Assembly: GCA_963712585.1 (NCBI GenBank)
Contig: CAVQIH010000012.1
Coordinates: 36,692 to 100,691 of the forward strand
Length of the DNA: 64,000 nucleotides
Reading direction: 5' to 3'
Source of the DNA: an uncultured Chloroflexia bacterium
GTDB taxonomy: Bacteria; Chloroflexota; Limnocylindria; Limnocylindrales; CSP1-4
Positions within the stretch are counted from its first letter, which is position 1. Every line of letters starts with the position of its first letter. The translations under genes were made by a program, and so were the position numbers. Below the pieces are notes generated by a model that was given only the letters and a program-made list of their open reading frames with translations, ran no database searches and was not told the DNA's origin. Of the stretch, positions 11,600 to 48,610 are shown piece by piece.

Positions 11600-11696
11600 T
11601 GGCGGGAGCGCATGGGAGTCGAACCCACCGCGTCACGTCGAGCGTGGCGCCACCGGTTTTGAAGACCGGGGGACCCACCGGGACCCCTCCGCTCCC
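11600..11696 (-). tRNA. selC: tRNA-Sec (selC), anticodon UCA
   Basis: Reverse complement reads GGGAGCGGAGGGGTCCCGGTGGGTCCCCCGGTCTTCAAAACCGGTGGCGCCACGCTCGACGTGACGCGGTGGGTTCGACTCCCATGCGCTCCCGCCA. It is 97 nt with an 8-bp acceptor stem, a CU-UCA-AA anticodon loop, a long variable arm, and a T-loop GGTTCGACTCC. CCA is encoded. Confidence 0.85.
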
Positions 11697-45020: not shown

Positions 45021-45740
45021 TTGACTTCCCCCCGCGACCTGAGCTCCGCGCTCGCCGACCGCCTGATCACCCCGCACGAGGCCGCCGACCTCATCGCCCA
45101 CCTGGGTTTCGAGCTCGTGCACGGCGACCGGCCCGACGGCCCGGGCGGGGCGAACCTCCTGGTCGCCCTCCGCGCGAAACCGACGCTCGTTCATTTCGAT
45201 CCCGAGACGATCTCGTACTGGACGTTCACCGACGGCCACGGTCGGCTGGAGCAACTCGATCGGGCGACACACCTGCCGCTCGAGCGCGCCTTCTCCTGGG
45301 GCCAGATCCGAATCGTCGATCGGCTCGGGGTCTCCAACGTCTTCCTCGGTTTCGGGGGCGCCCTACATGCCGAGGCGGTAAACGCGAACACTACGGTCGC
45401 GGTCTTCGCGACACCCGCGCCCATCTTCCGCGCCGGTGGCCATAGCCAGGAATCCGATCTCCGAGCACTCGAGGTCGGGGCGTTCTTCGCGCGGGTCAAG
45501 ATCCCGATCGACTTCCAGGCCGGCGTGGAGAGCTCCGTCGGTCAGGTGACTCCGTTGGCGCTCTACGCGACCGCGATCGGCGACCTCCGCGCACGTCTCG
45601 GGGCATCCGAGGCCCTCCGCGAGACCCGGCCCGAGGTGAACCAGTGGAGCCGCCGCGAGGCGCTCCGGCTGCAGGCGACTGCTCCCGAAGAGTGGCGCGC
45701 CGGCGCGGCACTGCTGCATAAGCTCGGGCTCAGCACCTGA
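45021..45740 (+). CDS. hypothetical protein (TTG start)
   Basis: 239-aa uninterrupted ORF with balanced composition. No recognisable family. Confidence 0.35.
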   Translation: MTSPRDLSSALADRLITPHEAADLIAHLGFELVHGDRPDGPGGANLLVALRAKPTLVHFDPETISYWTFTDGHGRLEQLDRATHLPLERAFSWGQIRIVDRLGVSNVFLGFGGALHAEAVNANTTVAVFATPAPIFRAGGHSQESDLRALEVGAFFARVKIPIDFQAGVESSVGQVTPLALYATAIGDLRARLGASEALRETRPEVNQWSRREALRLQATAPEEWRAGAALLHKLGLST

Positions 45741-45806
45741 GCGCTCGCAGATGAGGAGGCCGCGTGCGCTCAGGTGGCGCCGCGCAGCGCGGCCGACCGC
45801 GGCGAA

Positions 45807-46178
45807 TCAGTACGAAGTCGACCGGCGGCTGGCGAAGCAGTCGTTGCAGTAGACCGGCTTGCCGCTCGTCGGCCGGAACGGCACCTGGGCTTCGCGGCCG
45901 CAGGACGAGCAGGTGGCGGTGAACATCTCGCGCGGGCCGCGCGAGCCACCGTTGGAGCCACCGCCGCGTGAGCCGTAGCCACCCCCGCCGTCCCCGTAGC
46001 CGCCTCCCGCGGCGCTGTAGCCGCCCGAGTCGCCACGGGCGGCCTTGCGGCTGGATCGGCAGGAGCTGCAGCGACGCGGCTCGGTGAAGCCACGGCTGGC
46101 GAAGAACTCCTGCTCGCCCGCGGTGAAGGTGAACTCCTGCCCGCAGTCCGCGCAGGTCAGAGTTCGGTCCGTATACAA
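45807..46178 (-). CDS. double zinc-ribbon (CxxC...CxxC x2) small protein with Gly/Arg/Tyr-rich linker; possible nucleic-acid-binding protein (copy 1)
   Basis: (M)YTDRTLTCADCGQEFTFTAGEQEFFASRGFTEPRRCSSCR...GGYGDGGGGYGSRGGG...REMFTATCSSCGREAQVPFRPTSGKPVYCNDCFASRR. SD GAGGAG 8 nt before a TTG start. Confidence 0.6.
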   Translation of the reverse strand: MYTDRTLTCADCGQEFTFTAGEQEFFASRGFTEPRRCSSCRSSRKAARGDSGGYSAAGGGYGDGGGGYGSRGGGSNGGSRGPREMFTATCSSCGREAQVPFRPTSGKPVYCNDCFASRRSTSY

Positions 46179-46260
46179 GGAGATCACTCCTCTCGTGCGC
46201 GGCGTCCGCGACTCGTTCTCGCGGAAGCCGTGAGAGGAGCGATCGTGTTGCCGTGCAGGT
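46179..46260 (-). promoter_or_regulatory. conserved structured 5' leader of the zinc-ribbon gene: CUCCUCUC anti-SD pairs with the GAGAGGAG SD region, plus an inner hairpin UCCGCGA-GAACGAG-UCGCGGA
   Basis: RNA reading ..GCUCCUCUCACGGCUUCCGCGAGAACGAGUCGCGGACGCCGCGCACGAGAGGAGUGAUCUCCUUG. A second copy (46805-46890) has the same pairings, with a compensatory change in the inner loop and an extended inner stem. Confidence 0.45.
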
Positions 46261-46454
46261 CTGGCCCCGGCGTTCCGGGCGTTGTCGGCGGGGATGCTAC
46301 CGGAACGGATCGCGAATGGGAAGATGGGATTTGAATGACAACTGATCAGGCCCCGGGAGCTGTGCCCGGGGCCTGATCAGTTCGCGTCCTTGGTGGGCCG
46401 CCGGCGCCCGGATCGCGGCATCCTCACCGCGGGTCCGAGCCCAGCCGCCAGGCC

Positions 46455-46804
46455 TTAGTACGCCGTGGCGCGCCGGCTGGCGAAGCAGTCGTTGCAGTAG
46501 ACCGGCTTGCCGCTCGTCGGCCGGAACGGCACCTGGGCCTCGCGGCCGCAGCTGGAGCAGGTGGCGGTGAACATCTCGCGCGGGCCGCGCGAGCCACCGC
46601 TGTAGCCACCGCCGGCGCGCCGTAGCCGCCCGAGCTGGCGCCGTAGCCGCCGCAGTCGCCACGGGCCGCCTTGCGGCTCGCGCGGCACGACGTGCAGCGA
46701 CGCGGCTCGGTGAACTGGCGGCTGGCGTAGAACTCCTGCTCGCTCGCCGTGAAGACGAACTCCTGGCCGCAGTCGGCACAGGTCAGGGTCTTGTCCGTAT
46801 ACAA
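46455..46804 (-). pseudogene. double zinc-ribbon / Gly-rich small protein, tandem paralog (copy 2) with apparent frameshift(s) in the Gly-rich linker
   Basis: (M)YTDKTLTCADCGQEFVFTASEQEFYASRQFTEPRRCTSCRASRKAARGD.GGYGA.. | ..GGYSGGSRGPREMFTATCSSCGREAQVPFRPTSGKPVYCNDCFASRRATAY. About 85% DNA identity to copy 1 including the leader. Confidence 0.5.
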
Positions 46805-47003
46805 CGAAGAACACTCCTTCTCGTGCCGGCTTCCGCGACCTGGTCTCGCGGAAGCCGTGAGAGGAGCGTCGTGTGCGCCGTGCAATCTCTGATGCCCGCT
46901 CTGCGGGTGCAATCGACTCTACCCGAAAGGAGCCGTCGAAGGCAATAGCCCTGCGGCGCCGTCTGTCATGGCCGGTTGGGGAGCTACCGTCGGTCGATGA
47001 CGA

Positions 47004-47852
47004 TCACCTGGGCGGGCCCCGGCGGATCCTCGCGCGCATGTCGTCGAGCGCGCCCCGCATGCCGTGGATCGCCTCGAGCCACCAGGTGGCGCCCGCCGCG
47101 GCATAGGCAGCCGGATCGCCGGATCCGGAGGCGTCACCGCCGGAGGTCTCGCCCCCGACGACCACCTCGAAGGGCCGATCGCTCTGCCGCAGGCCGGCGA
47201 TCAGGGCGCCCATCTCCCGGATCTCGTCGGGGCTGAGCATCCAATCCTCGGGCCCCACCGATCCGGCGCGGAGCGGGAAGACGCCGTCCCAGCGCGCGGC
47301 GCGCCGGAAGGGCGCCTGGCGCGGCCATCCGCCGGCCACCCAGATCGGAATCCGCGGGCGCTGGACCGGCCGAGGCACGAAGGTCGTCTCGTGGACTTGG
47401 AAATGCGTGCCCATGAAGCCGAACGGCTCGCCCGACCAGAGCCCGTCGATGATCGCCAGCGCCTCGTCCAACTTCGCCGCCCTGACTCGGCGGTCGGCGT
47501 CCTCGCCGAACTGGCTGAAGTCGGTGGGTGGCTCGCCGAGCCCGACACCGAGAACGAACCGGCCGTTCGACAGCACGTCGAGCGAGGCCGCCTGGCGGGC
47601 CACGATCCAGGGGCGCTGGCGGGCCGGTGGCGTGACCAGGGGTCCGAACACGAGCCGTTCCGTAGCGGTGGCGATGGCTGTCAGGGCGATCCAGGGGTCG
47701 ACGATCGGGACCGCCCAGGCGGGATCGAAGACAACGGTGTCCCAGATGAAGAAGCCGTCCCAACCGGCCTCCTCCGACTCACGGGCGAGGGTGGCCAGCG
47801 TGGCCGCGTCGCCGTACTCGCCGAAGTTCGGGGCGTAGATCCCGTAACGCAT
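47004..47852 (-). CDS. LLM-class (luciferase-like monooxygenase) F420-dependent oxidoreductase
   Basis: RBS gggagg. MRYGIYAPNFGEYGD...GWDGFFIWD...GRFVLGVGLGE.. is typical of the LLM F420 family. Confidence 0.7.
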   Translation of the reverse strand: MRYGIYAPNFGEYGDAATLATLARESEEAGWDGFFIWDTVVFDPAWAVPIVDPWIALTAIATATERLVFGPLVTPPARQRPWIVARQAASLDVLSNGRFVLGVGLGEPPTDFSQFGEDADRRVRAAKLDEALAIIDGLWSGEPFGFMGTHFQVHETTFVPRPVQRPRIPIWVAGGWPRQAPFRRAARWDGVFPLRAGSVGPEDWMLSPDEIREMGALIAGLRQSDRPFEVVVGGETSGGDASGSGDPAAYAAAGATWWLEAIHGMRGALDDMRARIRRGPPR

Positions 47853-47932
47853 GGAGCCTCCCGGCGGGGTCAACGGGACGCGTCGACACGTCCCATGATG
47901 CCAGCCCCGGGCGGACGCCATACCATGAACCG

Positions 47933-48610
47933 ATGACCGCCGCCCGCCGAAGGACCAGGCCGCCGACCCCGCCGTCGGCGCCGGTCGACGGTCACGTCGC
48001 CGACCCCATCCTGCCAGCCGGTGCATTCGAGCCGGTCATCCTGGAGGGGCGCTTCGTCCGGCTGGAGCCGTTGACCCTCGCCCACGTCGAGCCACTCGTG
48101 GCCGTGGGGCTCGATCCCGAGCTGTGGCGCTGGATCCCCTGGCCAGTCCGAACGGCAGGCGACATGCGGGCCTACGTGGAGGCGGCCCTCGCGATGCAGG
48201 CGGCCGGGACCGGGTTGCCCTTCGCCACGATCGAACTCGCTTCCGGGCGAGTGGTCGGCAGCACCCGCTTCGGCAACATCGACCGACCGGACCGGCGGGC
48301 CGAGATCGGCTGGACCTGGCTCGCCCCGCCCTGGCAGCGCACCCGCCTCAACAGCGAGGCGAAGCTCCTCATGCTCGAGCATGCCTTCGAGCGCCTGGGC
48401 TGCGTCCGCGTCGAGTTCAAGACCGACTCCCTCAACGAGAAATCGAGGGCGGCTTTGCTCCGCATCGGTGCTCGCGAAGAGGGCATCTTCCGCAACCACA
48501 TGCTGACCTGGAGCGGGCGGCTCCGGCACTCGGCCTACTACAGCGTTATCGCCGAGGAGTGGCCGGCGGTGAAGGCGGCCCTCGTCGAGGGACTCAGCCG
48601 GGGCAGCTGA
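47933..48610 (+). CDS. GNAT-family N-acetyltransferase (RimJ/RimL-like)
   Basis: ..FVRLEPLTLAHVEPL...RVVGSTRFGNIDRPDRRAEIGWTWLAPPWQRTRLNSEAKLLMLEHAFERLGCVRVEF.. Confidence 0.8.
   Translation: MTAARRRTRPPTPPSAPVDGHVADPILPAGAFEPVILEGRFVRLEPLTLAHVEPLVAVGLDPELWRWIPWPVRTAGDMRAYVEAALAMQAAGTGLPFATIELASGRVVGSTRFGNIDRPDRRAEIGWTWLAPPWQRTRLNSEAKLLMLEHAFERLGCVRVEFKTDSLNEKSRAALLRIGAREEGIFRNHMLTWSGRLRHSAYYSVIAEEWPAVKAALVEGLSRGS

Follow-up and report, generated by a model that had tools for sequence, protein, structure and literature searches.

The stretch of DNA analysed here (the window, 64,000 nucleotides, nt) comes from an uncultured Chloroflexia bacterium of the Limnocylindria (Limnocylindrales, CSP1-4; GenBank assembly GCA_963712585.1, contig CAVQIH010000012.1, positions 36,692 to 100,691 of the forward strand). 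Sequence of ~71% GC surrounds a pair of paralogous minus-strand genes for a small double-zinc-ribbon protein, each preceded by a structured leader in which the Shine-Dalgarno (SD) sequence is paired. Both the paralogy and the TTG starts, which lie 626 nt apart, had been recognized in an initial annotation made from the sequence alone, and both were upheld here. Copy 1 is intact and its product matches P0001 in NCBI/ENA exactly. Copy 2 aligns with copy 1 over its whole length and has lost 21 nt, in frame, from the Gly-rich linker; a second deletion, of one nucleotide and also in the Gly-rich part, places the N- and C-terminal domains in different frames. Profile hidden Markov model (HMM) matches were found in two frames, one per domain. 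The frameshifting proposed earlier for copy 2 is therefore present, as one event and not several. Between the copies, the codons of the N-domain show 9 synonymous and 8 non-synonymous differences and those of the C-domain 7 and 2, and the changes are mainly synonymous or family-typical in both halves. Judged from these sequences, purifying selection acts on both parts of copy 2, so the frameshift is either recent or an assembly error. A programmed frameshift was rejected, no slippery heptamer being present. The only other split gene among the 111 metagenomic homologues listed (L158) coincides with an NN assembly gap. No third copy was found in the window by an HMM scan of its six-frame translation.

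Promoter-like boxes precede both copies. Those of copy 1 were not called by a strict consensus scan; a TAnnnT box is conserved at the same place in the family consensus. A perfect GC-rich hairpin between the copies (CUGAUCAGGCCCCGGG...CCCGGGGCCUGAUCAG), whose stem is also displayed by chance Rfam alignments to microRNA and hepatitis B virus epsilon families, is probably the terminator of copy 2. As this hairpin separates the genes, each copy looks like an independent transcription unit. The initial annotation had described a leader of ~80 nt and ended the unit at 46890. Counted from the -10-like box, the full leader measures ~105-110 nt, including a 5' hairpin and a linker that had gone unnoted, and the unit reaches ~46945.

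The encoded protein belongs to a recognizable zinc-ribbon family. A profile search against zf-trcl-type families had been suggested and gave clear matches: residues 4-48 of the copy 1 protein match PF13451 (zf_Tbcl; E = 3.5e-19, 68.9 bits, cut-off 24), and residues 83-119 match PF23477 (zf_Tbcl_2; 70.7 bits, cut-off 27) and the NCBIfam 'CxxC-x17-CxxC domain' TIGR04272 (70.1 bits, cut-off 36) at E = 8e-20. With both domains above the curated cut-offs and four cysteines in each, the protein is a member of these families. The CxxC-x17-CxxC spacing assigned earlier to both ribbons holds for the C-terminal one; the N-terminal spacing is CxxC-x24-CxxC. Across 32 homologues, none of the eight cysteines varies. 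An AlphaFold2 model built on 32 homologues contains two small folded domains (predicted local distance difference test, pLDDT, 80-89) joined by a Gly/Tyr/Arg/Ser linker (residues 49-78, GGYG/RGG-like) that is predicted to be disordered (pLDDT <50). A self-complementary GC stretch, CUCGCGCGGCCCGCGCGAG, codes for SRGPRE, an invariant peptide with which the C-terminal domain begins; in copy 2 it lies ~20 nt downstream of the frameshift. This stretch could form a 7-8-bp hairpin inside the coding sequence (CDS), and its self-complementarity may simply be codon usage.

A first search returned 5575 relatives at E <= 1e-3 (clusters at 90% identity), with 59-85% identity to copy 1 in the best 120 of the 5575. 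The N-terminal domain occurs in 6640 clusters (50% identity), often in 2-5 tandem copies. Isolated fusions of this domain to a protein kinase, to RCC1 repeats and to two RNA polymerase alpha C-terminal domains were set aside as clues to function, being single cases and not decisive. The last of these, P0262 (316 aa), carries two copies of the alpha C-terminal domain (PF03118, E = 7e-24) alongside zf_Tbcl and zf_Tbcl_2 and is the only observed architecture tying zf_Tbcl domains to a known nucleic-acid or transcription module. A profile search of the PDB gave at best a weak CPSF4 zinc-knuckle match, Foldseek gave no match in the PDB at E < 1, PADLOC reported nothing on the protein, and PHROGs yielded weak HNH-like Cys-pattern matches at most. 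Literature searches returned nothing on PF13451 or zf-trcl and nothing relevant among the Limnocylindria results. The likeness to RNA chaperones drawn in the initial annotation thus stays an analogy, as the profile and fold searches gave no informative relatives.

The sole experimental result retrieved on such proteins is that small proteins of Methanosarcina mazei with the CxxC-x17-CxxC motif bind zinc (PMC12704099). These and other zf_Tbcl small proteins share the domains of the window protein (E ~1e-19), including the archaeal four-cysteine motif that binds Zn. In contrast to them, the Chloroflexota proteins join two different ribbons by a Gly/Tyr/Arg/Ser linker of 30-70 residues. Homologues from Oscillospiraceae (Bacillota; Pusillibacter and Subdoligranulum) have neither the Gly-rich linker nor a leader hairpin of comparable stability, and the Pusillibacter gene starts 38 nt past a sigma-factor gene. 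Short matches to the N-terminal ribbon only (residues 3-34, 58% identity) were also seen on 26 Clostridium perfringens plasmids (~8-113 kb, most ~46-50 kb), where they are annotated as zinc-ribbon domain proteins and, in two records, as 'cytochrome c551'.

Upstream of both genes, the promoter-like boxes are followed by a hairpin (P0), a linker, a three-tier hairpin of 61-63 nt (the sequestor hairpin), a pyrimidine-rich spacer and the UUG start (Table 1). In the outer helix of the sequestor (P1), the anti-SD strand CUCCUCUC pairs by Watson-Crick with GAGAGGAG, and in copy 1 the whole extended SD lies inside this helix. The pairing of the SD region proposed in the initial annotation therefore folds as described in both copies, at -42.9 kcal/mol in copy 1 (z = -5.7) and -41.0 kcal/mol in copy 2 (z = -5.3); none of 200 dinucleotide shuffles was as stable as the window hairpins. 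The inner stem was likewise recovered, continuous over 12 bp in copy 2 and with different terminal loops in the two copies. P0 of copy 2 is compensatory relative to that of copy 1 (CCCGC/GCGGG against CCCGG/CCGGG).

Table 1. Positions of the zinc-ribbon genes, their leader elements and neighbouring features in the window.
Feature	Position	Strand	Remarks
Copy 1 CDS	45807-46178	minus	intact open reading frame (ORF), 123 aa, TTG start, stop included
Copy 1 UUG start	46176-46178	minus	position kept in homologues
Copy 1 promoter-like boxes	46294-46322	minus	TTCCCA-17 nt-TAGCAT; read from sequence
Copy 1 P0	46266-46279	minus	CCCGG, loop AACG, CCGGG; read from sequence
Copy 1 linker element	46250-46257	minus	UGCACGGC; candidate anti-sequestor
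Copy 1 sequestor hairpin	46182-46244	minus	fold, match to covariance model R1, covariation
Copy 1 P1	46244-46232 with 46194-46182	minus	GAUCGCUCCUCUC with GAGAGGAGUGAUC; 13-bp helix with one G-U
Copy 1 SD core	46187-46190	minus	GGAG
Copy 1 P2	46227-46230 with 46200-46203	minus	CGGC with GCCG; stacks on P1
Copy 1 P2 3' strand and junction	46195-46203	minus	GCCG.GCA
Copy 1 P3	46219-46225 with 46205-46211	minus	UCCGCGA with UCGCGGA; loop GAACGAG
Copy 2 gene	46455-46804	minus	TTG start 46804-46802, stop 46455-46457
Copy 2 1-nt deletion	near 46614-46618	minus	Gly-rich part
Copy 2 promoter-like boxes	46916-46945	minus	TTGCCT-18 nt-TAGAGT; read from sequence
Copy 2 P0	46895-46907	minus	CCCGC, loop AGA, GCGGG; read from sequence
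Copy 2 linker element	46877-46884	minus	UGCACGGC; candidate anti-sequestor
Copy 2 sequestor hairpin	46810-46870	minus	fold, R1 match
Copy 2 P1	46859-46870 with 46810-46822	minus	one bulged A
Copy 2 SD core	46814-46817	minus	GGAG
Copy 2 inner stem	46846-46857 with 46827-46838	minus	CGGCUUCCGCGA with UCGCGGAAGCCG; continuous 12 bp, loop GACCAGG
Hairpin between the copies	46338-46383	minus	perfect, GC-rich; from sequence; probable copy 2 terminator
Self-complementary stretch, copy 1	45939-45960	minus	CUCGCGCGGCCCGCGCGAG
Self-complementary stretch, copy 2	46575-46596	minus	CUCGCGCGGCCCGCGCGAG
Inverted repeat past copy 1 stop	45734-45776		CACCUGAGCGC...GCGCUCAGGUG
Convergent ORF	45021-45740	plus	239 aa, no Pfam match
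Luciferase-like monooxygenase gene	47004-48026	minus	PF00296, E = 3.6e-38
Selenocysteine tRNA gene	11600-11696	minus	anticodon TCA

The leader is conserved well beyond the window. A genome scan restricted to one genome per species returned 80 loci, nearly all from Candidatus Limnocylindria/Limnocylindrales or unclassified Chloroflexota metagenome-assembled genomes (MAGs), and at almost every locus the 130 nt preceding the gene have the same architecture. GGAG pairs with an upstream CUCC in the minimum-energy fold at 77 of the 80. The exact 19-base 5'-strand pattern CTCCTCTCACGGNTNNCGCGAG occurs in at least 120 metagenome contigs; among the matches listed, a zf_Tbcl gene lies directly downstream in 111 of 114 evaluable contigs, three contigs are chance matches without the 3' half, and six end within 100 nt of the motif. 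In all, at least 168 distinct leader versions were collected from Limnocylindria-like Chloroflexota MAGs and metagenomes, with the zinc-ribbon gene following immediately wherever the sequence allowed a judgement. They include two types, A, which carries CGGCUGACGCGAG (111 distinct versions), and B (54, both window copies included), that differ in linker, junction and loop sequences. Terminal loops range from 7 to ~20 nt across the family. The same leader precedes the genes for homologues P0021 (from a Coriobacteriia bacterium according to its NCBI record), P0031 and P0118 (from a Chloroflexi MAG).

A covariance model of the sequestor (R1) matched the leaders of copy 1 (67.4 bits, E = 5.6e-16) and copy 2 (62.9 bits). 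With filters off, R1 matched these two leaders only in the 64-kb window, and in 547 kb of sequence comprising the window and the genome loci its matches fell solely at the starts of zf_Tbcl genes. The divergent paralogue L080 gave no R1 match, although its SD is still paired in the fold. Neither leader matched any family in Rfam 15, even at E <= 10 with permissive filters; at the gathering threshold, the whole window gave a tRNA-Sec match only.

Covariation was assessed on an explicit P1-P2-P3 structure of 26 pairs, using a trimmed alignment of 64 distinct orthologous leaders; RNAalifold on the raw MAFFT alignment of 78 full leaders had recovered only 4 pairs, that alignment being too gappy. 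Paired cells made up 83.8%, compared with 36-47% when the 3' partners were slid by 1-3 columns. Cells changed on both sides numbered 92, against 33.8 +/- 4.2 in column shuffles (0/500), and the covariation score was 0.212 against 0.112 (0/500). Compensation is evident at columns 6/84 (GU:33, CG:20, GC:4), 7/83 (AU:55, GC:6), 26/59 (GC:29, UA:10, CG:7) and 27/58 (CG:19, AU:9). The P0 hairpin also covaries strongly across the family. P3 differs from the other helices, which covary freely, in being nearly invariant in sequence (CGCGAG/UCGCG; GC:64, CG:63, GC:60). Few unpaired positions are conserved; examples are the A that separates P1 from P2 and the GAGAA with which the loop opens. Loss of the SD/anti-SD pairing from orthologous leaders, which the initial annotation had named as grounds for abandoning its proposal, was thus not observed.

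An inverted repeat near a promoter could in principle be a repressor operator acting at the DNA level. On the sense strand, many pairs are G-U (columns 6/84, GU:33, and 22/63, GU:30, are examples), and these become A-C mismatches on the other strand; R1 scores the sense strand far higher than the antisense (67 against 27 bits). Both observations indicate that the structure acts as RNA and not as a DNA palindrome. The arms are, moreover, ~35-40 nt apart with a nested helix between them, and 45-110 nt separate the element from the -10 box upstream of it. We give the operator explanation hardly any credence. With high confidence, we conclude that a lineage-wide, gene-specific leader exists that operates at the RNA level and buries the SD.

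The initiation region of the family is unusual in several respects. Start codons in the 168 distinct leaders listed are GUG (96), UUG (56), AUG (15) and AUC (1), that is, 91% non-AUG, compared with 11 ATG, 6 GTG and no TTG in 17 neighbouring called genes. The spacer from GGAG to the start is 61% U, against 14.6% T overall in the loci. At least five U within the 8 nt after the SD strand were counted in 148 of 164 leaders (copy 2 has five), at a fixed offset because in minimum-energy folds the U tract often pairs with upstream purines. Since a U-rich tract directly follows the hairpin in ~90% of the family, the hairpin may double as an intrinsic terminator. Predicted folding mostly leaves the start codon single-stranded (median unpaired probability 0.75). 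For the SD, the corresponding median is only 2e-4 at 37 °C across the leaders, and opening it would cost a median of 12.4 kcal/mol (copy 1, 17.4; copy 2, 10.1).

Temperature has little effect on this prediction. Between 4 and 80 °C, equilibrium folding always gave the locked form, and in copies 1 and 2 and one type A leader the predicted SD-unpaired fraction rose from ~1e-4 at 37 °C to no more than 0.035 at 80 °C. The leader shares with ROSE and fourU elements an SD occluded within a 5' untranslated region (UTR) hairpin, as a classical heat-melting RNA thermometer would require. The window helix is, however, far more stable than theirs: P1 has 12-13 bp (9-13 in the family), is GC-rich and near-continuous and stacks on two helices, so the marginal stability expected of such a thermometer is not seen in silico. 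The anti-SD strand CUCCUCUC also has neither UUUU (facing AGGA in fourU elements) nor U(U/C)GCU (the motif that comes with a bulged G), and no destabilizing mismatches. A heat-melting thermometer is consequently very improbable, because the SD is predicted to stay closed up to 80 °C and the signature motifs are absent. The cis-acting RNA switch put forward in the initial annotation keeps its conserved SD-gating pairing, and its melting-thermosensor variant is disfavoured; a switch is plausible by way of a co-evolving linker.

This linker, between P0 and the sequestor, is complementary to part of the hairpin. The type A linker, GUAGC(U)CGACGC, is similar to the P2/P3 5' strand GGCUGACGC and complementary to the P2 3' strand plus the unpaired junction before the SD strand (...GGCUACC). 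Because P2 contributes three nucleotides to the core GUAGC:GCUAC, the two pairings are mutually exclusive. Co-varying type A variants include AUAGC:GCUAU (L116, L154), UAGACC:GGUCUA (L197), AGACC:GGUCU (L157), GACC:GGUC (L045, L109, L181), UCGAC:GUCGA (L034, L099, L139) and CGACA:UGUCG (L041). Pairings of type B include GUACGGC with GCCGCUAC (L007), UUCGGC with GCCGGA (L029) and GCCGGA with UCCGGC (L072). In the window, UGCACGGC is complementary to GCCG.GCA of copy 1 (duplex -12.6 kcal/mol) and can pair with GGAAGCCGGCAC in copy 2 (-11.9 kcal/mol).

The complementarity was evaluated without recourse to an alignment, each of 61 distinct 3' segments being represented by one leader. Against the P2 3' strand plus junction, linkers bound their own segment at -9.58 kcal/mol compared with -7.77 +/- 0.27 kcal/mol for permuted partners (z = -6.7, 0/3000). 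Against the last 8 nt, the junction, the values were -7.39 and -5.89 +/- 0.22 kcal/mol (z = -6.9, 0/3000). Three controls with reversed linkers or segments showed little preference (own -5.54 to -7.31, permuted -5.28 to -7.02, z -1.0 to -1.4, 234-435/3000). This co-evolving complementarity suggests a mutually exclusive anti-sequestor pairing. Two further candidate elements were rejected: a pseudoknot joining the linker to the loop of P0 (GCGUC:GACGC), for which no sign of co-evolution was seen (z = 0.2), and a leader peptide encoded by a 4-codon GUG...UAG mini-ORF in some type A leaders, which was found on inspection not to be conserved (e.g. L012).

We propose a two-state switch in which the sequestor hairpin competes with a linker-based anti-sequestor, and give this model an even chance of being correct. 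Each copy would be a monocistronic unit whose ~105-110-nt 5' UTR serves as a lineage-wide cis-regulatory RNA. In the ground state, which folding in silico and covariation demonstrate, the three-tier hairpin forms and its 12-13-bp outer helix takes up the extended SD through an anti-SD strand resembling the 16S 3' end; initiation at the weak UUG or GUG start would then be blocked. The hairpin and U-rich tract may additionally act as an intrinsic terminator, making the leader a terminator/antiterminator attenuator, a type of device common in Terrabacteria. In the alternative state, the upstream linker (UGCACGGC here, GUAGC... in the main clade) would invade the inner helix, pairing with its 3' strand and with the junction, and so free the SD and break the terminator-like structure. 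Opening should need an active input, because the locked form is ~10-17 kcal/mol more stable and the hairpin closes locally first during transcription. As the trigger we would guess first at a trans-acting RNA-binding factor, conceivably the zinc-ribbon/Gly-rich product of the gene, ahead of a small molecule or heat.

Several observations weigh against this two-state model. The open form is far less stable and not kinetically favoured, so the switch needs an additional factor. Taken singly, the window linkers are not significant: their binding is equalled or bettered by 26% of shuffled linkers in copy 1 and by 8% in copy 2. Some subgroups lack linker pairing in the expected register (L033/L038/L043, L052, L054 and L094). 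By geometry alone, the linker helix could also displace just the outer part of P2 and leave P1 closed, as a pseudoknot. The terminator function is called into question by the poor U tract of copy 1 (4 of 8) and by a consensus terminator scan that called nothing in the leader region. PDB profile, Foldseek and architecture searches, finally, gave no RNA-binding evidence for the protein.

Alternatively, the structure could be constitutive and not switch at all, with the hairpin, P0 and the weak start damping translation and stabilizing the mRNA of a protein whose level has to be held constant, while 30S subunits stand by on the U-rich spacer to exploit the rare openings. Such an arrangement would accord with a start codon and U-rich spacer that are mostly single-stranded next to a buried SD, with a conserved hairpin near the 5' end, with the lack of a recognizable sensor domain and with the thermodynamically very unfavourable open form. 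The opening cost of 10-17 kcal/mol, however, is well above what standby binding can offset. Keeping a strong extended SD only to bury it in 12-13 bp would also be an odd route to a low steady level, and the co-evolving linker complementarity would have no role. We regard constitutive damping as unlikely, although it is one of the two main rivals of the switch, the other being a cold-shock-like choice of conformer.

The anti-sequestor arrangement raises two further possibilities that bear on the proposed switch. Its sequestor/anti-sequestor layout is typical of riboswitch expression platforms, and P0, the linker and the internal loops might form an aptamer for a metabolite or ion, with the conserved unpaired A between P1 and P2 and the loop GAGAA as part of it. 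Very few unpaired nucleotides are conserved, however; there is no multi-helix junction and no Rfam match, loops vary in length, and linker, junction and loop sequences differ between the leader types. The leader moreover occurs with one gene family only. A metabolite or ion riboswitch is therefore improbable, and the ligand-controlled variant in the initial annotation finds no aptamer-like conserved pocket to support it. A leader operated by a protein fits better, given the single gene family, the divergent junctions and loops, the absence of conserved unpaired pockets and the invariant P3; the sequence invariance of P3 hints at sequence-specific recognition. This invariance, together with the P0262 fusion to RNA polymerase alpha C-terminal domains, which bind nucleic acid, is an indirect hint that the protein may bind its own leader. 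Autoregulation by the encoded protein would be a form of this; it is our first, tentative guess, and we judge it to be unlikely.

The second possibility is a conformational thermosensor of the cold-shock type, in which temperature-dependent co-transcriptional folding would pick the open (linker-paired) or the locked conformer as in the cspA 5' UTR, and the cold would thereby induce a stress protein whose Gly-rich tail resembles RNA-binding ones. The two mutually exclusive pairings suggested, a long leader and several MAGs with two copies at separate loci, each under its own leader, are all compatible with this, as is the low-complexity Gly/Tyr/Arg linker of the protein, which recalls cold-induced glycine-rich RNA-binding proteins. 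The leader nonetheless matches neither cspA nor any other Rfam family, and equilibrium folding is locked throughout 4-80 °C. We consider a cspA-like thermosensor rather doubtful.

The proposed two-state leader can be compared with several known systems. Attenuators and riboswitch platforms resemble it in having an SD hairpin with a U-rich tract and an upstream segment able to pair, in competition with the hairpin, with its 3' half. Unlike these, the leader has no recognizable aptamer, leader peptide, tRNA-binding element or known protein-binding element, and is tied to one gene family and one lineage. The cspA 5' UTR is also a long structured leader, with alternative conformers gating the SD and start, upstream of a small, multi-copy, putatively nucleic-acid-binding protein. 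The present leader differs in lacking sequence or structure similarity to it and in having no temperature dependence predicted at equilibrium. Cyanobacterial glycine-rich rbp genes have conserved 5' UTRs as well; in contrast to cspA and rbp, the protein here is a double zinc ribbon and not a cold-shock domain (CSD) or RNA recognition motif protein. Autogenous leaders such as those of the ribosomal proteins L20 and S15 and of threonyl-tRNA synthetase (thrS operator) are similarly gene-specific, lineage-specific structured leaders that overlap the ribosome-binding site (RBS). In those leaders the default state is translatable and the protein represses, whereas the zinc-ribbon leader is predicted to be locked by default.

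The gene and leader could constitute an undescribed autoregulated stress module, in which the protein acts as an RNA chaperone or antiterminator that opens (or locks) its own hairpin by linker invasion. CspA and the double-zinc-ribbon protein would then be functionally analogous and structurally unrelated. This is a speculative proposal that we think has little likelihood; if true, it would give uncultured Limnocylindria a non-CSD, low-complexity-domain system for RNA remodelling.

Regulatory elements that sequester the SD are a known leader type, and this one is attached to a very widespread protein family. With at least 168 variants and clear covariation, it is a well-supported new candidate structured RNA that is absent from Rfam, from a phylum that RNA family databases cover poorly. 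Its protein family is strongly conserved as well as very large, and is abundant in a class of uncultured Chloroflexota from soil and freshwater. The tight RBS lock, as modelled, and near-universal non-AUG starts would indicate strictly gated expression. The leader thus offers an experimental handle on the purpose of the protein, via whatever opens the hairpin.

The surroundings of the gene pair contribute some minor observations. None of 200 related loci listed has the tandem arrangement seen in the window. Several MAGs carry two gene copies on different contigs, each with its own leader (L005/L030, L021/L043, L062/L076 and L079/L080). Gene neighbourhoods differ between loci and are not conserved: a Caroten_synth (PF04240) gene follows the zinc-ribbon gene in L201, L202 and L203, and other genes do so in L204 and L205. 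In the window, the luciferase-like monooxygenase gene ends ~60 nt upstream of the copy 2 boxes. Just past the copy 1 stop, an inverted repeat overlaps the end of a convergent ORF and may be a bidirectional terminator without a U tract. Elsewhere in the window lies a selenocysteine tRNA gene, detected both by Rfam tRNA-Sec (72.3 bits) and by ARAGORN, which implies that the organism uses selenoproteins.

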